From an uncultured virus (IMG/VR IMGVR_UViG_3300044977_000112) (Duplodnaviria > Heunggongvirae > Uroviricota > Caudoviricetes): a stretch of 20,000 nt of DNA. Under the pieces are notes generated by a model. It saw only the letters and a list, made by a program, of their open reading frames with translations. It ran no database searches and was not told the DNA's origin. How positions within the stretch are numbered: position 1 is the first letter of the stretch; each line of letters starts with the position of its first letter. A program made the translations under genes and the position numbers. Of the stretch, positions 2,204 to 20,000 are shown in pieces. The stretch is from the IMG/VR virus record IMGVR_UViG_3300044977_000112; one strand, given 5' to 3'.

Positions 2204-3540
2204 CAAGTCCTTGTCTCAAAACTGATGGCACTTGGCGGAAAGGATGCGTTGACCCCAATGGAGCAATACCACCAATTCCGGGGAAATCCAGACCGGCTTG
2301 TAAAAAGTTTGGCAAGCCGACGGGTAAGACAGAAACGTGCCAGACATGTCGGGGTAAAGTGAACTTGAAAATTTTCGAGTGTTCGGAGTTTGAATCGTGT
2401 ACTCCGGAAACAAAGCTTCCTGGTCATGCGTGCTGCAAAGGCTGCACGAAATATGAGCCTGTGGAGAAGCCATTTCGCGGCATGAAGTCACCGCGAGACA
2501 AGCGCAGTACCTATCATGGTGGCATTCTGCAGGTCCACCTTACAAGAGCGTGCGACCGCTCTTGTTTCGCGTGCACACAGGGTAGCAACTTCGCTGGCAA
2601 ACCCGAGTTCATGACTCCCGACCAGGCCCGAGTAGCTTTCGATTCTCTCCAAGGCTACTTCGGAGTCATCGCCCTGTTCGGCGGCAATCCCTGCATTTCC
2701 CCGCACTTTGAGGAAATCTGCAAAATCATGCGCGGTGCTGTGCCGTGGAACCGCCGAGGCCTGTGGAGTAATCATCCGTTGGGGAAAGGGAAGATATGCC
2801 GGCAGACGTTCAATCCCGCCGTCTCGAACCTCAACGTACACGAGAGCCAAGAGGCATACAACGAATTTGCGGGGGACTGGCCAGAGAGCAAGCCCTACTT
2901 GAAAGGCCTGGATTGCGATTCCGCGCACCGGCCTCCGTTCGTTGAACTGAATCAAATGATCCCCGATGAAGCTGAACGCTGGCGACTTATTCGCGATTGC
3001 AAGATTAACGCAGAATGGTCGGCGATGATCGGCATCTTCCGCGGACAACTTCGCGGCTGGTTCTGCGAGATCGCTGGTGCGCAGTCGATGCTCCACCAGT
3101 ATGATTCAGAGATTTGTGAAAAGTGTGGAGGCAAGGGAACAACGACCGCCCAATATCACCCTGAGGGAGTAGAACCCGTTGAATATCCTTGTTGGGACTG
3201 TGCTCCAACAGGAGGATTTTATGGAAAACACGGGCCATCTGAAGGTAGAGTTTGGGGCTACCCCGACACGGGTCATCGGATCGTCTCGGGCTGGTGGAAC
3301 AAACCCATCGACGCTTTCGAGGAACAAGTGACATATCACTGTCACCGCTGCGGCATTCCACTTCCTTCGGAGAGTATACTTGCCAACGGTGGCGAGGTCG
3401 AAGTAGTTACCCTGGGCTATGAGCGTATCGCCAAACCAAAGCGACTAGGGCGGCAGGTGTTGACGCTTCTGGAACCAGCGCCTCGGCTCGGTAATCCAAA
3501 TCGAGAAGTAATTCGCTATCTCGAATCGGGCAAGCCATGA
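2200..3540 (+). CDS. Radical SAM protein with N-terminal Cys-rich domain and C-terminal auxiliary Cys motifs
   Basis: CxxxCxxC (TRACDRSCFACTQ) after a beta strand, GGNP at the GGEP position, later Cys motifs (DCKIN, WFCEIAG, HCHRCG). ATGA overlap with the upstream gene. Confidence 0.9.
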   Translation: MTSPCLKTDGTWRKGCVDPNGAIPPIPGKSRPACKKFGKPTGKTETCQTCRGKVNLKIFECSEFESCTPETKLPGHACCKGCTKYEPVEKPFRGMKSPRDKRSTYHGGILQVHLTRACDRSCFACTQGSNFAGKPEFMTPDQARVAFDSLQGYFGVIALFGGNPCISPHFEEICKIMRGAVPWNRRGLWSNHPLGKGKICRQTFNPAVSNLNVHESQEAYNEFAGDWPESKPYLKGLDCDSAHRPPFVELNQMIPDEAERWRLIRDCKINAEWSAMIGIFRGQLRGWFCEIAGAQSMLHQYDSEICEKCGGKGTTTAQYHPEGVEPVEYPCWDCAPTGGFYGKHGPSEGRVWGYPDTGHRIVSGWWNKPIDAFEEQVTYHCHRCGIPLPSESILANGGEVEVVTLGYERIAKPKRLGRQVLTLLEPAPRLGNPNREVIRYLESGKP

Positions 3541-4049
3541 CCGAAGATATCTTTGCCGGCCAATCCTACGCCAAACCGGACGAGCTGGCAAAGCTCATCG
3601 AGCTACTTCCGGCGAGCGGCTGGTTCCTGGAAATCGGCTCGGCCCACGGCGTCACTGCTTCAATGATCGCTCGAGCCCATCCAGGCTCGCGGATCGTGTC
3701 AATCGATCCCTATATCGATCCCCATCCCGAAAGGTTGGCGAACTGGAAAGCCAACCAGGTCGCGAATCAGCATCTCTGGGTTGGAGAAATCGATACATTC
3801 CACTTATTTTGTGGCCAAAAATTCGATGTGGTTTTTGTAGATGGCGATCATCGGTACGCAGGCGTAATGCGCGATCTACTTTATGCGACGATGCTGGTCA
3901 AAGAAGACGGAACGATTGCGGTCCATGATTGCGGCGATCCAGAATGGTATCAAGTTCAACAGGCATTCGACAGATTTATATCTGCTCAGCATAAATGGAA
4001 AATTGACGCAGTAGTAGGATCGTTGGCAATTTTGAGGATGGGGAAATGA
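3537..4049 (+). CDS. Class I SAM-dependent methyltransferase (Methyltransf_24-like)
   Basis: FLEIGSAHG motif I, VSIDPY, FDVVFVDGDHRYAGV and IAVHD motifs; ATGA overlaps at both ends. Confidence 0.9.
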   Translation: MTEDIFAGQSYAKPDELAKLIELLPASGWFLEIGSAHGVTASMIARAHPGSRIVSIDPYIDPHPERLANWKANQVANQHLWVGEIDTFHLFCGQKFDVVFVDGDHRYAGVMRDLLYATMLVKEDGTIAVHDCGDPEWYQVQQAFDRFISAQHKWKIDAVVGSLAILRMGK

Positions 4050-4871: not shown

Positions 4872-5264
4872 ATGGCAGAGGAACATGAAGCCGAGCCCCG
4901 GGGTAAATTCGCATCAGGCGTCCACGAGACCAGAAAGGCTGTTTTAACGCTCATCAATCTGACCGATACCCAGCGGGCGTGGCTGGCCATTTCGACGATC
5001 CTGGCCTGCTGTATCGGCGGTCTGGCCTGGATGATGAGTGCCTGGCGATCCGATGTCCACGACGAAAGAGCGTTGACGACGCGGGCTTATGAAGCGGAAT
5101 CGGAACGCGGGCGGATGTGGTATTCACAGGAACGGGATAAGGATCGACTCTGGCAGGCCGAGCAGAACGAAAAGAACCGCTCAGCTACAATGGCACTGGT
5201 GGTGAAGATGGATCAGGTTTTGGCGGCAATTCGGGCGAAGAAGAATGGGATAGAAGATGATTAG
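4872..5264 (+). CDS. Single-pass membrane protein with coiled-coil tail (holin-like candidate)
   Basis: AAGGAGG RBS; hydrophobic segment WLAISTILACCIGGLAWMM followed by a charged helical region. Confidence 0.7.
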   Translation: MAEEHEAEPRGKFASGVHETRKAVLTLINLTDTQRAWLAISTILACCIGGLAWMMSAWRSDVHDERALTTRAYEAESERGRMWYSQERDKDRLWQAEQNEKNRSATMALVVKMDQVLAAIRAKKNGIEDD

Positions 5265-5499
5265 ACCCCGCAATTCCCGCCGTCTTCCTGCCCACCAGTT
5301 CATCGAGGCTGATCTGAAATCCATCAGCCATCATGATAAGATTCGCCAACCCTGGAACTCGCCCTGCATTCTCGAACTGGGCAATCTGGTTGCTCCCAAA
5401 GCCGCATGCTTCTGCAAGTTCGTCCTGAGTCCAAGAACGGTTTTCGCGGAGTTTCTTGAGATGGGATCCAAAAGAGCGAATGAGGGTGGAAGTAGTCAT
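5185..5499 (-). CDS. XRE-family helix-turn-helix transcriptional regulator
   Basis: FGSHLKKLRENRSWTQDELAEACG...IAQFENAGRVPGLANLIMMADGFQISLDELVGR fits HTH_XRE. ATG at 5499 overlaps the upstream stop (ATGA). Confidence 0.92.
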   Translation of the reverse strand: MTTSTLIRSFGSHLKKLRENRSWTQDELAEACGFGSNQIAQFENAGRVPGLANLIMMADGFQISLDELVGRKTAGIAGSNHLLSHSSSPELPPKPDPSSPPVPL

Positions 5500-6056
5500 A
5501 AGTTGCCACCTCCGCGTCGTCCGGTACATTCACACGCTTCGCAGTTTACTTCCTTGGGATCAAGTCCTATCCCAATGCAGGAAGGACAAGGTTCCCACTT
5601 GGCGGCAAGATTAACGCACTTTTCGACACAGCTACCGACAACCACTTCAATTTGTGCTGTCATGTAACGAAACCATGACTCCTGATTCTGATCGCGCTGG
5701 GCCTCTTGGCTTGCCTCCGCGTCGTTCTCTTCCCATCCGGTGATAAGTGTTTGTACAGCTTGGTTGATTTCTGATGCAATCGCCGCTGTGAGGTATTTGT
5801 CATCCGAAACGGGTTTTTTATAAGTTTCAGACAACGCCTTTCCGATGGGGGTTTGATAACCCCAATCGCCCGGAGCGCCAAACGCTTTATGCCATGCTCT
5901 CCCCTCGACCAGTCGGGCCAGAACATTAAACAATTCGGCGTTGTCCCGATCTTCTCGGCTTGTCTCTTCATCAGCATCGTCCTGATCCAGAATGGCTTTC
6001 GCACGCTGGCGAAGAGCGAGAGTAACGGGCTTCCAATTCGTGATAGCATCTTTCAT
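5496..6056 (-). CDS. Hypothetical protein with C-terminal CxxCxGxG-type zinc finger
   Basis: CPSCIGIG...CEACECTG; ATGA-coupled to both neighbours. Confidence 0.75.
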   Translation of the reverse strand: MKDAITNWKPVTLALRQRAKAILDQDDADEETSREDRDNAELFNVLARLVEGRAWHKAFGAPGDWGYQTPIGKALSETYKKPVSDDKYLTAAIASEINQAVQTLITGWEENDAEASQEAQRDQNQESWFRYMTAQIEVVVGSCVEKCVNLAAKWEPCPSCIGIGLDPKEVNCEACECTGRRGGGNL

Positions 6057-6703
6057 GATACAACCTCTCTTTCTGCAAGCTTCTTCATGTCAGCCAAAGC
6101 ATCTTCATTCGAGTCGAAGAATCGCACTGGCGAAATCAGATAGCCACTTGCCTTGTAAATCTGCATTGCGGCAAATTCAGGCGATGTTTGTTGTTCCAAT
6201 TCGCGACCCTCTTTTCCAGCTAATGCTACGACCCATCCGGCACGGCAATGCGTTGTTCCACAATATCCACCTTCAGGAGAAACCTCTTCATCGGTGTGCC
6301 AAGTGGACATATTGAGGCAATTTGGTCTTGATGCAGCTTCATAAACCTTCTTGTGAATTTCCGTAATGACTGGGATTTTCCTGGCACCGACTTCGATTTT
6401 TGATGGTGCCATGCCGGAGCAGTCGGAGCAGCGGGAGCAGCGGGAGCAGTCGGAGCAGTCGGAGCAGCCGGAGCAGCGGGAGCAGCCGGAGCAGTCGGAG
6501 CAGCGGGAGCAGTCGGAGCAGTCGGAGCAGTCGGAGCAGTCGGAGCAGCCGGAGCAGCCGGAGCAGCGGGAGCAGTTTGTCGTTTTCTTGCAATCGATTA
6601 GGCTATCTAAAGCCTTTTGCGCTTTTTCTTGCGTACCGAACCATTCGACATAGCAACGGTTACCTTTGGTGTCCTCAACGAATTCAACGGTCGTAGCAGT
6701 CAT
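6053..6703 (-). CDS. Cys-Ser-x repeat protein with C-terminal 'WH...CGTTHCRAGW' domain
   Basis: ATG at 6703 follows an AAGGA RBS (track start 6859 overlaps the upstream gene). 18 CSx units; the C-terminal domain resembles the one I recall on phage pentapeptide-repeat proteins. Confidence 0.8.
   Translation of the reverse strand: MTATTVEFVEDTKGNRCYVEWFGTQEKAQKALDSLIDCKKTTNCSRCSGCSGCSDCSDCSDCSDCSRCSDCSGCSRCSGCSDCSDCSRCSRCSDCSGMAPSKIEVGARKIPVITEIHKKVYEAASRPNCLNMSTWHTDEEVSPEGGYCGTTHCRAGWVVALAGKEGRELEQQTSPEFAAMQIYKASGYLISPVRFFDSNEDALADMKKLAEREVVS
6413..6574 (-). repeat. Coding 9-bp tandem repeat, 18 copies of TGC TCC (CGC/GGC/GAC)
   Basis: Read directly: the + strand shows GGAGCAG recurring every 9 bp. 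Confidence 0.98.
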
Positions 6704-6749
6704 GGTATTCCTTGGTTTGAGCAATGAGTAATTGGTAAACAGCATAAAA

Positions 6750-7103
6750 TCAAACGCTTCCACCTCGTAAGTCAGCGACGAATTCGCCCCACTGGAAGCA
6801 ATCGCGCCACTGAGTTTCGCGGACGCCGGGAACCGAAACGGCAAGAGCCTCATCTTCATTGGCCGGATCGTAATCCCAGTTGACGTGGTTCGCCCACACT
6901 TCGACGATTTCCCATGATGCTGCGGATGGATTCCATTCTTCGCCCTCGTGGGTTCCCTCAGTGGGGGCAGTCAAGCGTGCCCAGTAGTATCCGGGCTTCA
7001 GAGGCAGGTTATTTTGCATTATCTCCCATCTCCTATCTTCGGGTGACCAGAAGGAACAATCTGGGGGATCAATGCCCCGGAGAGTGTTGCGAGGATCATT
7101 CAT
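6750..7103 (-). CDS. Hypothetical phage protein, Trp-rich (alternative start 7019)
   Basis: PLKPGYYWAR motif typical of small phage proteins; GGGAG precedes the ATG at 7019. Confidence 0.7.
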   Translation of the reverse strand: MNDPRNTLRGIDPPDCSFWSPEDRRWEIMQNNLPLKPGYYWARLTAPTEGTHEGEEWNPSAASWEIVEVWANHVNWDYDPANEDEALAVSVPGVRETQWRDCFQWGEFVADLRGGSV

Positions 7104-7105
7104 GA

Positions 7106-7321
7106 TTAAGCTCCCCAGTTATCTGGAATTGATGTTACGATTTCCTCGATCCAGGCATTCCAAACTCGCTTGGCCATTTCGTCGGTTTCGCAGTTGTGAA
7201 GGATCACATATCGACCAATAATTTCTCCTGGATTCAACCGTCGCACAATATACTGGTTGTCCACGCTGCAATTGCGAGCGTCATTTCCCAAAAGGTCAAT
7301 CCACGTCTTCTGAGCGATCAT
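7106..7321 (-). CDS. Hypothetical protein (71 aa)
   Basis: AAGGG RBS, in series with the minus-strand operon. Confidence 0.65.
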   Translation of the reverse strand: MIAQKTWIDLLGNDARNCSVDNQYIVRRLNPGEIIGRYVILHNCETDEMAKRVWNAWIEEIVTSIPDNWGA

Positions 7322-7338
7322 TTTAGCCCTTTATGTTT

Positions 7339-7390
7339 GGCCTCATCGGCTGCCGCATGACGGCAAGACCGGCTTTCGCCGGTTTCGGCC
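7339..7390 (-). ncRNA. Type II hammerhead ribozyme with CCGAUGA core variant
   Basis: Minus strand reads GGCC GAAA CCGGC GAAA GCCGG UC UUGCCGU CAU GCGGCAG CCGAUGA GGCC. All three stems pair, GAAA and GUC are correctly placed, and the core differs from CUGANGA at one position. Confidence 0.85.
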
Positions 7391-7564
7391 TTAGATTCGG
7401 ACCAGTGATAGGACTTTGTAAGGACTGCCGCCACCGCAGGGTTTCATGACCTTTTGGCCAACTTTGAACGGCGTGCTTGAGCACCGGGGAAGGATCATGG
7501 TATAGGTCATTCCTTCAAGTGTTCCACCGATGAACAGGATTTCGATTTCGTAGGTTGCGAGCAT
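7391..7564 (-). CDS. Hypothetical protein (57 aa), first gene of the leftward operon
   Basis: ATG at 7564 with GGAG RBS; the track start at 7603 sits at about the predicted transcription start. Confidence 0.6.
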   Translation of the reverse strand: MLATYEIEILFIGGTLEGMTYTMILPRCSSTPFKVGQKVMKPCGGGSPYKVLSLVRI

Positions 7565-7611
7565 GTTCAGGACTCCGAAGGGGTTTGGGTTTCCGTCTCT
7601 CATCTACCAAT

Positions 7612-7640
7612 ACTATACGCTATCGTCATGAGAAGTGCAA
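7612..7640 (-). promoter_or_regulatory. Sigma70-type promoter, leftward
   Basis: TTGCAC (7640-7635), 17-bp spacer, TATAGT (7617-7612), with an AT-rich stretch upstream; intergenic. Confidence 0.8.
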
Positions 7641-7688
7641 TACGATTTCGTAAAGATTTTCTGAAAATGTTTTGCTGCCAGAAATGAC

Positions 7689-8117
7689 CTACTTCGCCCA
7701 CACGCTACACTCGCCCACTCTCACCCACCACGTCACTCCCGCTCCCCGGTTCTTCCCGTCTTCCACTCGCCCCACGCACCGCCCCACCACGTCAATCGGC
7801 CGGCAGTTATCGGCTAATCCGCCTCCATACTCGCACACCAGGACCGGCTCACTTCCCGGCATTCCAGAGAAAAAGCAGATCTGCCCTTCTCGTACTTCGT
7901 ACTCCTTCGCCCCGAAGCTCAGCCGCACTTTCCGACCCGTGTAATTTGCATCGGCTTGCTGAATGCTCAAGTCTCGATATGATTTAATCAGAGCTTTTGG
8001 CGATACCTGCTCGGCGGGTTCCGTGGTAGGATTGGTGCGGCACGAAACGATCATCGTCGCAATCCCAGTCATCAAAACCAACGATCCGCAAAGAGCAACA
8101 AGAGGGCGAACAGTCAT
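7689..8117 (-). CDS. Putative exported or lipoprotein, possibly tRNA_anti-like OB-fold
   Basis: Hydrophobic N-terminus ending IVSC; VSPKALIKSY...ADANYTGRKVRL resembles OB-fold lipoproteins from memory. Start uncertain. Confidence 0.55.
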   Translation of the reverse strand: MTVRPLVALCGSLVLMTGIATMIVSCRTNPTTEPAEQVSPKALIKSYRDLSIQQADANYTGRKVRLSFGAKEYEVREGQICFFSGMPGSEPVLVCEYGGGLADNCRPIDVVGRCVGRVEDGKNRGAGVTWWVRVGECSVWAK

Positions 8118-8373
8118 GGCAAAAACACCTCATCAGGTTAATCCACCGATACCGCCAGTTCCACCAAGTCCACCGCCCCCACCGTTGCCTTGCTCGGATT
8201 CGCCTTGTTGTGACGATGTTCTGGGGCCGTCGATCGTTGTCTGCTGGAACAGCAAGACTTACATGATCGATCCACCTTCCGCGGCGGGGACACTGGTCTT
8301 TGATCCCACTGTACCACCTGGCACTTGCCCAATCTATTGGAGTACGTTAGTGGGATTGCCGAAAAAACCGTAG
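8116..8373 (+). CDS. Pro/Cys-rich hypothetical protein (85 aa)
   Basis: GAGGG before ATG 8116; PPIPPVPPSPPPPP and PCSDSPCCDD, similar in style to the tail protein. Confidence 0.6.
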   Translation: MAKTPHQVNPPIPPVPPSPPPPPLPCSDSPCCDDVLGPSIVVCWNSKTYMIDPPSAAGTLVFDPTVPPGTCPIYWSTLVGLPKKP

Positions 8374-8412
8374 TTTTGGCGGTGGGTGAAAATTCGGGGC
8401 GGGGGTGGAAAC

Positions 8413-9075
8413 ATGAGGCTGTTGGATTTGTATTGCCGAGCCGGGGGTGCAGCCGTTGGATACAACCAAGCGGGGTTCGATGAAATTGTGGGCATCGATA
8501 TTGAGTCACAAAAAAGATATCCATTCACTTTTGTTCAGTGTGATGCTCTGGAATACGTCCGAGATCATTGGCGGGAATTTGACGCCATCCATGCCTCTCC
8601 ACCGTGTCAGGCTTATTGCGCGATGAAGGGACTCGGTAAAGGGGCCGGTAAAAATGCCCCTGATTTGGTCGGGCCAACCCGGATGCTTCTGCAAAGGACA
8701 TGCGTGCCGTGGGTAATCGAGAATGTTCCGGGGGCTCCTTTGATCAATCCAGTGATGCTATGCGGCTCAATGTTCCGCCTCGGGGTTCGCCGCCATCGGC
8801 TGTTTGAAACATCGTTTTTTATGTTGGGAATTTCGACGTGCGAACACAGACCTGGGGCTTTGGCTGTGTATGGGGATCATCCGGAAGATGCCTACATTCA
8901 TTCCAAGACAATGAAGCCGGATTCGACGAAACGGGCTCCGAATATCCAGGCTGCAAGGAAGGCGATGGGGATTGATTGGATGGACTGGAAGGATATCACT
9001 CAAGCCGTCCCGCCCGCTTTCACAAAATTCATAGGAACCCAGATGATCGATCACATACGCTTCAAGGCCGCATGA
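8413..9075 (+). CDS. DNA (cytosine-5)-methyltransferase, short phage type
   Basis: LLDLYCRAGG (motif I), HASPPCQ (catalytic PC), VIENV (motif VI), RRHRLF (motif VIII), QAVPP (motif X). Confidence 0.9.
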   Translation: MRLLDLYCRAGGAAVGYNQAGFDEIVGIDIESQKRYPFTFVQCDALEYVRDHWREFDAIHASPPCQAYCAMKGLGKGAGKNAPDLVGPTRMLLQRTCVPWVIENVPGAPLINPVMLCGSMFRLGVRRHRLFETSFFMLGISTCEHRPGALAVYGDHPEDAYIHSKTMKPDSTKRAPNIQAARKAMGIDWMDWKDITQAVPPAFTKFIGTQMIDHIRFKAA

Positions 9076-18724: not shown

Positions 18725-19258
18725 ATGTCCCGCAAGTCTCCCTCCATTCCTCTTGGAAGCTACGCCGTCGGCATGTCTGTTGGCGAGGCCCTGGACAAGA
18801 TTGTCAAGGAGCAGGGTTTTAACCTGAGTCCCGTTGAAAAAGCCAAGAAACGACGTGAGAAGGTGCCATTGGTCGAGGCCAGCTCCTTTGTGGGACCGTG
18901 GTACTTCATGGCCGTGATCCCGCTCTATGTCGTGGCTGGCGACAACTCGCGTGGGATGCAGAAACGCATTGGCCGTGGTGGTCACGAGAAGACGACCACA
19001 ATTAAGACGCTGGCGCGGTGGCATCGAGAGATTGCTCCTTACGCAGATCGAGCAATTGTCGGGGAACGGGTTGAGATTAAGCTGACCAGGCTGGGACCGA
19101 ATCTTCTCGATGACGACAATTGTACGGCATCTTGCAAATACATTCGTGATTCTGTAGCTATGTTTCTCGGCTGTGACGATTCGCCGCGTTCGCCGCTGAT
19201 TTGGAGCTACGATCAACGGAAGGAAGCGGCATACGGGGTGGAAGTGAGGATCAGCTAA
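18725..19258 (+). CDS. RusA-like Holliday junction resolvase / endonuclease
   Basis: VEIKLTR...LDDDN...KYIRD...GCDD...GVEVRI gives the RusA DxDN, K-x-x-x-D and DD pattern. Confidence 0.75.
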   Translation: MSRKSPSIPLGSYAVGMSVGEALDKIVKEQGFNLSPVEKAKKRREKVPLVEASSFVGPWYFMAVIPLYVVAGDNSRGMQKRIGRGGHEKTTTIKTLARWHREIAPYADRAIVGERVEIKLTRLGPNLLDDDNCTASCKYIRDSVAMFLGCDDSPRSPLIWSYDQRKEAAYGVEVRIS

Positions 19259-20000
19259 TGCCTTCCACCATCGCTGACGTGTTGGCCGGAAATGGACACT
19301 GGGCGGTCGAGTGCGGGGATTGCTTGTCAGTGATGAAATCTCTTCCCGACCGATGTGTTAACCTCGTCTTTACCAGTCCTCCCTATTCAGATCAACGCAC
19401 ATACGGCTTGGGATTCAAACTCAAGGGCCAAACCTGGGTCGATTGGCTGCGGCCGATCATTGTGGAATGTGCGCGAGTCTCTTCTGGACTCGTGGTCGTG
19501 AACATGGCTAGTCCGGTCAAGAAGGCATCGTATCAACCAGAAGTCGAATGGTTGGTTGCTGATCTCACACGGTTGGATGGTCTCGTGTGTGGTCCGAGTC
19601 CTTACGCCTGGGTGAAATCGCAGAATCGCGAAGATGCGGACGGTAACGGCATTCCTGGGAGCGGAGCTGCGCACTACCAACGACGCGACTGGGAAGCATT
19701 GTACACGTTTGCTCTTCCGGATCGATTGCCCGGCAAGAACAGAAATTCCGATTTCTGGTCGGATAACTTGGCATTCGGTCATCCGCCGAAGTGGGGCGCT
19801 GGCGGCAAGATGAGCAACAGGATGGCCGACGGGACAAGAGCGAACGATCCGTGGGGTAAGCGCGGCCGTGGAAACAACTTGGGGGGCAGAAAACCAAATG
19901 GCGAGAAGAATCTGGGCACGCTGGCAAACGCCCCCGGCCCGACAAAGCGAAGCGGTGGAGAATATAAAGCCGTCAGTCGTACTCACACGAAACGTGTGAG
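19258..20000 (+). CDS. N4-cytosine/N6-adenine DNA methyltransferase (beta-class layout), truncated by the window end
   Basis: Absent from the ORF track. Manual translation from ATG 19258 (TAATG overlap): MPSTIADVLAGNGHWAVECGDCLSVMKSLPDRCVNLVFTSPPYSDQR..., open to the end. Confidence 0.92.
   Translation, partial: MPSTIADVLAGNGHWAVECGDCLSVMKSLPDRCVNLVFTSPPYSDQRTYGLGFKLKGQTWVDWLRPIIVECARVSSGLVVVNMASPVKKASYQPEVEWLVADLTRLDGLVCGPSPYAWVKSQNREDADGNGIPGSGAAHYQRRDWEALYTFALPDRLPGKNRNSDFWSDNLAFGHPPKWGAGGKMSNRMADGTRANDPWGKRGRGNNLGGRKPNGEKNLGTLANAPGPTKRSGGEYKAVSRTHTKRV

Follow-up and report, generated by a model that had tools for sequence, protein, structure and literature searches.

A hammerhead element with a C4 core between two small genes of an uncultured phage is probably a working, if slower, mRNA-processing ribozyme

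INTRODUCTION

Can a hammerhead whose core carries C instead of U at position 4 still cut the messenger RNA in which it lies? This question is raised by a stretch of 20,000 nucleotides (here called the window) from an uncultured virus of the Caudoviricetes, IMG/VR record IMGVR_UViG_3300044977_000112, in which a hammerhead-like sequence with the core CCGAUGA sits in a run of small minus-strand genes. The window is phage-like: it encodes an HTH repressor (5185-5529, minus strand), several DNA methyltransferases and a papain-like protease, and it has PHROG matches. The original prediction, made from the sequence by itself, had described an intergenic type II hammerhead that processes a polycistronic mRNA after its first gene, and had proposed that the U4C change may tune or cripple its activity.

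U4 belongs to the CUGA U-turn of the hammerhead core. In its passages on type II hammerheads, Perreault 2011 (PMC3088659) introduces natural examples of this type, describes them as flanking single genes in prophages and proposes that they process long phage transcripts. Core variants are called rare there, and it is stated that U4C "considerably decreases activity in vitro", yet that the activity in vivo suffices for viroid infectivity, for which Ambros and Flores 1998 is cited. The same passages place the N3-H of U4 in contact with the backbone near N7, report a pseudoknot between loop I and the tail in the majority of type II hammerheads, though not in all, and describe the pseudoknot as critical for speed in the hammerheads that were tested there. 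The part of a pairwise mutagenesis study that deals with the U-turn (PMC9901934) gives low activity for CUGA mutations in a type III construct. Where a 2026 survey of deep-sea RNA viromes sets out its motif (PMC13481778), the core is written CYGANGA, with Y at position 4. A full-text literature search for CYGANGA returned this survey alone, and a search for "hammerhead" together with "U4C" returned Perreault 2011 alone. In the portion of a 2017 review that concerns them (PMC6155905), the roles of prokaryotic and phage hammerheads are called an open question.

RESULTS

Anatomy of the element

Based on its sequence, folding and model scores, the segment listed first in Table 1 is almost certainly a genuine hammerhead-class element. 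The sequence, our own descriptor and the class model R1 (both described below) agree that the original prediction had the topology, stems, loops and coordinates right to the base. Its placing of the element, from the base right after the TAA of the upstream gene at 7391-7564 to 17 nt before the next ATG, was confirmed, and its reading of the core as CCGAUGA, with a predicted cleavage site between 7367 and 7366, holds as well.

Table 1. Features of the hammerhead locus in the window, and type I hammerheads found after homologous genes
Feature	Position	Strand or source	Basis
Type II hammerhead element (predicted ribozyme), whole, including the class-invariant A	7339..7391	minus	class model R1, Rfam RF02276, descriptor match
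Weak promoter-like site, TTGCAC-17 nt-TATAGT	7612..7640	minus	by eye, upstream of first small gene
Upstream small gene, 57 aa from ATG 7564, TAA abutting the ribozyme	7391..7564	minus	ORF list
Upstream TAA stop	7393-7391	minus	sequence
A before stem II, last base of the upstream TAA	7391	minus	class-invariant position
Stem II, 5'-proximal strand GGCC, positions 11.4-11.1, pairs with 7339-7342	7387..7390	minus	sequence and fold
Core G12 A13 A14	7384..7386	minus	sequence and descriptor
Stem III hairpin, 6 bp (A15.1-U16.1, C15.2-G16.2 and 4 more), GAAA tetraloop	7368..7383	minus	sequence and fold
C17, GUC site	7367	minus	sequence and descriptor
Predicted scissile bond, 3' of C17 (7367) and 5' of U1.1 (7366)	7366..7367	minus	hammerhead numbering applied to sequence
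Stem I hairpin, 17 nt; 7 bp counting the U-G closing pair	7350..7366	minus	sequence, fold and class consensus
Core C3-A9, C-C-G-A-U-G-A	7343..7349	minus	sole conserved-position mismatch against R1 is C4
Variant C4 (consensus U4)	7348	minus	sequence
Stem II, 3'-proximal strand GGCC, positions 10.1-10.4	7339..7342	minus	sequence and fold
Spacer from ribozyme to next ATG (7321-7319), 17 nt, contains AAAGGG	7338-7322	minus	sequence
Downstream small gene, 71 aa, with AAAGGG Shine-Dalgarno-like run at 7327-7332	7106..7321	minus	sequence, ORF list
Type I hammerhead	L008 3195-3246	marine phage contig
Type I hammerhead	L013 1478-1534	marine phage contig
Type I hammerheads	L014 1118-1172, 1393-1444	marine phage contig
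Type I hammerheads	L015 205-260, 610-668	marine phage contig
Type I hammerheads	L017 500-556, 1505-1558, 2069-2124	marine phage contig
Type I hammerheads	L026 443-498, 833-887	marine phage contig

When compared with the canonical core (C3 U4 G5 A6 N7 G8 A9), the element departs at U4 alone, and the other five fixed letters are present. The further features that a hammerhead requires are in place, namely GAA at 7386-7384, the A7383-U7368 pair and a base other than G (C) at position 17, and the topology is that of type II, in which stems I and III end in loops and stem II is open. Apart from C4, no conserved position is altered, and none of the 17 base pairs is broken. Folded by themselves, the 52 nt adopt the three-way junction as their minimum free energy structure (-24.9 kcal/mol, z = -2.5). 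In the fold of a 151-nt context, stems III and I are kept and the 4-bp stem II is exchanged for other weak pairings. There is no loop I-tail pseudoknot of 4 bp or more in the element, as loop I has 3 to 5 nt and forms at most 3 bp with the tail when inspected by eye. A tail complementary to core nucleotides 3 to 7, which part of its class possesses (see below), is also absent.

Detection scores

The Rfam model Hammerhead_II (RF02276) aligns end to end with 7335-7390 on the minus strand and scores 22.4 bits (E = 0.016 when 231 nt are scanned), short of its gathering score of 37. In the whole-window Rfam scans, an RF02276 match at the element is absent from the listing. Our own type II descriptor, which allows one core mismatch, gives the element as the only strong type II match in the window, with 4, 6 and 7 bp in stems II, III and I, respectively, and one core mismatch. 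A comparable match (stems of at least 4/6/6 bp and at most one core mismatch) was obtained once in 2000 dinucleotide-preserving shuffles of the window, which amounts to 0.0005 per 20 kb. We also built a covariance model, R1, from 51 U4-only members, 50-54 nt long, of the class described in the next section (alignment A3). With R1, the window element obtains 61.3 bits (E 4.6e-16, by a rough calibration) over model positions 1-53 of 53, and the second-best match in the window has 11.4 bits. Conserved positions outside the core match as well, among them the A before stem II and the G-U-N-A-N-G-C in loop I. As a model trained on U4 members only gives 61.3 bits over all 53 positions, the sequence places the element firmly in the compact class. 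The covariance-model search that had been proposed as a check on the original prediction is thus positive with R1 and below threshold with Rfam.

In the 20-kb window, no hammerhead beyond this element was found with Rfam, the descriptors or R1. A weak descriptor match at about 1836-1899 on the plus strand was rejected as a chance match; it has a mismatch at A13 and AT-rich stems of 4-5 bp, and the relaxed descriptor gives 0.09 matches per shuffle.

A compact class of phage hammerheads

Exact copies of the 20-mer made up of GAA, stem III and C17 are present in 6 viral contigs, 5 of which carry 6 copies within type II hammerheads with a canonical core; in the other carrier (L007), no downstream core was seen. 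We scanned viral contigs with a pattern in which the GGCC of stem II, GAAAC and GUC were fixed, position 4 was Y and position 7 was N. This gave at least 130 loci, and among the matches listed 113 distinct elements pass the stem filter, 109 of them with U4 and 4 with C4. The class that emerges, here termed the compact A-GGCC subclass, has an invariant A before a GGCC/GGCC stem II, a stem I of 17 nt (5 variable pairs followed by G-U-N-A-N-G-C) and a short stem III. Its commonest length is 52 nt (23/113 among the matches listed). The stem II GGCC is invariant in 51 of 51 members, but it was fixed by the search pattern. In the class alignment, the U among the loop-proximal positions of stem I is invariant and the G and C are each present in at least 90%; stem I of the window element fits this consensus. 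The loops of the class are too short to form the pseudoknot that the Rfam consensus has between loop I and the tail. Covariation across the class is strong, with 99.3% of the cells paired in the alignment of 51 U4 members and changes on both sides at 10 of 16 pairs, on a set that was pre-filtered for at least 4 bp per stem, so that it arises partly by construction. The subclass was defined here from viral contigs, and it may be new as a named group; we have not met a name for it in print, no dedicated literature search having been made.

The Rfam Hammerhead_II threshold of 37 was reached by only 2 of 15 canonical U4 members of the class, and 1 of the 15 is absent from the listing. C4 members scanned with the same model have 22-29 bits or are likewise absent. 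Because canonical members also fall short, it is mainly the class as a whole that accounts for the low Rfam score, and C4 costs several further bits. The original prediction had stated that the U4C change would cause the element to be missed by strict motif searches. This holds in so far as the Rfam gathering score is not reached, but C4 is only part of the reason, since Rfam also misses 13 of the 15 canonical compact members, and at least in the motif given by the 2026 survey (PMC13481778) Y is already used at position 4.

In 61 of 128 elements among the matches listed, a stop codon abuts the first G of the ribozyme (22 elements) or overlaps it by one base (39 elements, TA+G). The elements came from the Y-pattern and C4-only scans, and the count requires an ORF that is open for at least 40 codons and ends at the 5' edge of the ribozyme. 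The stop codon in the window shares this arrangement, as it adjoins the 5' edge of the element. Since the stop codon abuts or overlaps the first G, a ribosome that terminates there would sit over the 5' portion of the ribozyme.

Some class members have a tail, located after stem II, of 5 nt that pair with core nucleotides 3-7. This was observed in 39 of 110 U4 elements among the matches listed, in 28 of them at offset 0; L033, L048, L060 and L066 are examples from the class, as are L170 and L169. The tail tracks positions 4 and 7, reading N-U-C-A-G with U4 and N-U-C-G-G with C4, and no non-cognate tail was found in either group. Such pairing suggests that the core can be sequestered in an alternative hairpin, perhaps once cleavage has taken place.

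Hammerheads of this class can be clustered. One viral contig of 67.6 kb (L035-L038) carries at least 9 compact type II hammerheads within about 5 kb. Another contig (L179) has a Twister-P5 ribozyme at 732-800 (46.6 bits, above the gathering score), about 280 nt downstream of a C4 hammerhead.

C4 in the compact class

In the Y-pattern scan, which is an unbiased sample with respect to C4, the variant makes up 4 of 113 distinct elements among the matches listed (about 3.5%). A scan of viral contigs for C4 only gave 27 stretches, from which 18 distinct elements pass the descriptor. Two more (L169 and L183) fail the descriptor solely because of a bulge in stem III, which brings the total to 20 distinct C4 elements; 6 stretches were set aside as apparent coincidences in coding sequence. 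All 20 C4 elements score 46.5-67.7 bits with R1, and their stems are perfect and compensated. On the 67.6-kb contig mentioned above, two C4 copies are found among at least 7 U4 copies with near-identical stems (stem I).

Control scans in which any non-consensus base was allowed at the neighboring core positions gave 2 raw matches for G5 and 8 for A6, and none of them is a real element. None passes the descriptor, and the best R1 score is 24.8 bits, which is in the range of random pattern matches. As decay should yield changes at G5 and A6 at rates comparable to those at U4, yet none was found, the comparison of sequences indicates that C4 is specifically tolerated by selection in the compact class. 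In the tails of three C4 elements (L170, L159 and L169), the base facing C4 is G, whereas A faces U4 in the U4 elements. Because these tails covary with C4, the variant appears to have persisted under selection. Of the two outcomes named in the original prediction, a change that tunes and a change that cripples, natural variation thus seems to favor a tolerated change over a crippling one.

Position 7 is U in 15 of 20 C4 elements versus 45 of 109 U4 elements (the latter among the matches listed), a skew from which nothing can be inferred because the elements are not independent lineages. In genome contigs, the C4 pattern gave at least 120 loci, and among the matches listed there is one real element (L309). 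The others listed are coincidences in the coding sequences of GC-rich genomes and have no bearing on the frequency of C4.

Neighboring genes and homologous loci

An in-frame ATG at 7603 would extend the upstream gene to 70 aa, but the start at 7564 is backed by P0002, a 57-aa protein that is 82% identical. The upstream small protein has no Pfam, PHROG or PDB match and no match in genome contigs, and the 71-aa downstream protein has no family match and no relatives in viral contigs. A blastn search with 6700-8200 against a phage GenBank collection also gave no match. The promoter-like site in front of the first small gene is omitted by a consensus promoter scan, as its -35 box matches at 3 of 6 positions; the homologous locus L008 has TTGACA-17-TATACT at the equivalent place. 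Upstream of the small genes lies an ORF at 7689-8117 (minus strand, 142 aa) that has no family match and, by eye, a lipoprotein-like, signal-peptide-like start ending in Cys.

A homologue of the upstream gene is encoded in 15 distinct contigs, with L008/L023 and L012/L024 counted once each. Two further candidates (L009 and L020) were left out, as they are 12-14-residue matches inside unrelated long proteins. In 8 of these 15 loci (L008, L013, L014, L015, L017, L018, L019 and L026, all marine phage contigs), a type I hammerhead with a canonical CUGAUGA core is located at most 3 nt from the stop codon. In the type I elements, 98.5% of the cells are paired and 4 pairs are compensatory, and a 5-bp pseudoknot between loop II and the tail is possible in 6 of 6 aligned sequences. 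They also occur in arrays, with 2-3 per locus of about 1.5-2.4 kb, and base pairing is possible between UGGCU in loop II and an AGCC(A) tail that follows stem I. An extra U after A9 is present in many type I elements.

At the other 7 of 15 homologous loci, no hammerhead was found after the gene with Rfam, with our own type I descriptor or by eye, and one of them (L016) has a terminator-like hairpin instead. The same Rfam models gave the clear type I element of L008 just 15.5 bits (HH9 model), so it is the descriptor and the reading by eye that carry this negative result. As these 7 loci do without a hammerhead, the ribozyme is not obligatory for the upstream gene. The gene family is thus followed by a hammerhead in two lineages, with different circular permutations.

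Other features of the window

Outside the ribozyme operon, the ORF at 6053-6859 (minus strand, 268 aa) contains Cys-Ser-Asp/Gly/Arg tripeptide repeats at 6339-6660 (CSRCSGCSGCSDCSDCS...), and its C-terminal part matches phrog_31265, which is of unknown function. Three genes resembling DNA methyltransferases are present in the 20 kb, at 3537-4049, 8386-9075 and 19201-19998, all on the plus strand; the kinds represented are Methyltransf_24, a C-5 cytosine methylase and an N6/N4 methylase. Such a set is consistent with a phage that guards its DNA against restriction.

DISCUSSION

The element described here is best read as a working, probably slower mRNA-processing ribozyme of the compact class in its C4 variant, and we give this reading a probability of roughly 0.6. 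Judged by the comparison with its relatives, we would on balance expect the element still to cleave usefully, and it is plausible that the polycistronic mRNA is processed after its first gene, as had been proposed. In this reading, the ribozyme would be transcribed within the minus-strand operon, and the three-way junction would form during transcription and cut itself between 7367 and 7366. By the established chemistry of hammerheads, the 2'-OH of C17 would attack the adjacent phosphate, with G12 and G8 as catalysts. The mRNA of the first gene would then terminate in stem III, capped by a GNRA loop, and carry a 2',3'-cyclic phosphate, and the downstream mRNA (7321 onwards) would open with a 5'-OH that is directly followed by the stem I hairpin, 28 nt upstream of the ribosome-binding site. 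These new ends would differ from the ends of the primary transcript in 5'-end-dependent and 3'-exonucleolytic decay, and because of this difference the cut could uncouple the stability of the first-gene message from that of the rest. With C4, the N3-H through which U4 contacts the backbone near N7 would be missing, and the change probably lowers the rate of cleavage without abolishing it. If C4 slows the cut, processing may be partial.

Several points were counted against this reading: the lowered in vitro activity reported for U4C and for U-turn mutations, the 7 homologous loci without a hammerhead, the presence of a single hammerhead in 20 kb, the absence of a pseudoknot and the loss of stem II in the 151-nt fold. 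A rival reading is that the element is a recently disabled relic, in which the change from U4 to C brought cleavage below a useful rate and the hairpins linger because the event was recent or because they serve as passive stabilizing structures. The literature lends this some weight, as U4C is said to reduce activity considerably in vitro in the relevant passage of PMC3088659, and U-turn mutations have low activity in the mutational scan, in the part of PMC9901934 that covers them. The minority state of C4 (4 of 113 elements among the matches listed), the absence of another hammerhead from the window and the homologous loci that do without one can also be understood in this way. A decaying class, however, should also contain G5 and A6 variants, yet none of the 10 raw G5 and A6 matches is real. 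All other conserved positions and the 17 base pairs are intact in the window element, 20 distinct C4 elements with fully compensated stems are spread across many contigs, and in three C4 elements the tail covaries with C4. We therefore regard a disabled relic as rather unlikely, though by no means far-fetched.

The other alternatives concern the sequence itself. C4 could be a sequencing or assembly error or a rare polymorphism in a phage population that truly has U4, so that the element would be fully canonical. The window sequence comes from a single contig, and the neighboring protein P0001 likewise has a record from just one. Assembled contigs rarely contain single-base substitution errors, however, and as C4 recurs independently in 20 other distinct elements of the class no error need be invoked, which makes this explanation very improbable. 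It could further be supposed that two GC-rich hairpins with another role, such as a terminator, an RNase site or a translational coupling element, happen to be accompanied by hammerhead-like letters. An Rfam score of 22.4 bits, below the gathering score and absent from the whole-window listings, and a z of merely -2.5 for the 52-nt fold would agree with such a coincidence, the chance of which we consider negligible. It is effectively refuted by the single comparable match in 2000 shuffles and by the R1 score of 61.3 bits (E 4.6e-16), and hammerheads are found at the same place after homologous genes. A terminator was rejected, as no terminator-like site is present in 6600-8600 and no U-run follows either hairpin.

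Compared with the type II hammerheads of RF02276, the working ribozyme that we propose shares the three-way junction (stem II open, loops on stems I and III), the GAA, A15.1-U16.1, GUC and G10.1-C11.1, and six of the seven letters of the CUGANGA core. It also shares the intergenic place on the sense strand between small phage genes and the proposed role, in which long phage transcripts are cut into mRNAs of gene length. It differs by C4, by the absence of a loop I-tail pseudoknot of at least 4 bp, and by a stem II of 4 bp, versus 2-3 bp in the Rfam consensus; its score below the gathering threshold is a trait that 13 of 15 canonical compact members display as well. With the compact A-GGCC subclass it has in common the A, the GGCC/GGCC stem II, the 17-nt stem I, the short stem III, the length of 52 nt and the abutting stop codon, and it differs by C4 and by the absent core-complementary tail. 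The viroid U4C hammerhead (Ambros and Flores 1998, as cited in the passage of PMC3088659 on this variant) has the same core substitution, with lower activity in vitro that is sufficient in vivo. As described there, it is a type III hammerhead that functions in rolling-circle replication, whereas the window element lies in a phage mRNA. The marine type I hammerheads belong to the same ribozyme class and occupy the same place, directly behind the stop codon of the upstream-gene family and ahead of the next ribosome-binding site, but they are circularly permuted, with stem I open, have the canonical CUGAUGA core and a 5-bp pseudoknot, and occur in arrays.

The novelty implied by the original prediction was too high, because the literature already contains U4C as a natural variant of a viroid, and the change is also recurrent among phage hammerheads. 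With this element, the intergenic hammerheads of phages, known since 2011, gain a further example. What it adds concerns the class to which it belongs. The Rfam Hammerhead_II model under-detects a large compact class, and a class-specific model recovers its members cleanly, those with C4 included. The finding of 20 C4 elements and no G5 or A6 element is comparative evidence that U4C would be compatible with function in full-length hammerheads. This contrast from natural variation can be set against the low or reduced in vitro activity reported for U4C and other U-turn mutations. For tests of function, a convenient matched pair would be the window locus together with the type I hammerheads that follow the same gene elsewhere.

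A more far-reaching interpretation, which we hold to be unlikely, is that C4 hammerheads are a selected kinetic variant and not a tolerated defect. It comes together with two further readings. The compact class, which has no pseudoknot, may rely on an undescribed tertiary contact that involves the invariant 5' A and the G-U-N-A-N-G-C loop. In addition, the occurrence of two topologies at one small early gene, in different phage lineages, may mean that this gene in particular requires a cut at that place. If C4 hammerheads were indeed such a variant, a slower or condition-dependent cut (for example, one that responds to Mg2+ or pH via C4) would set the ratio of processed to unprocessed early transcript in these phages.
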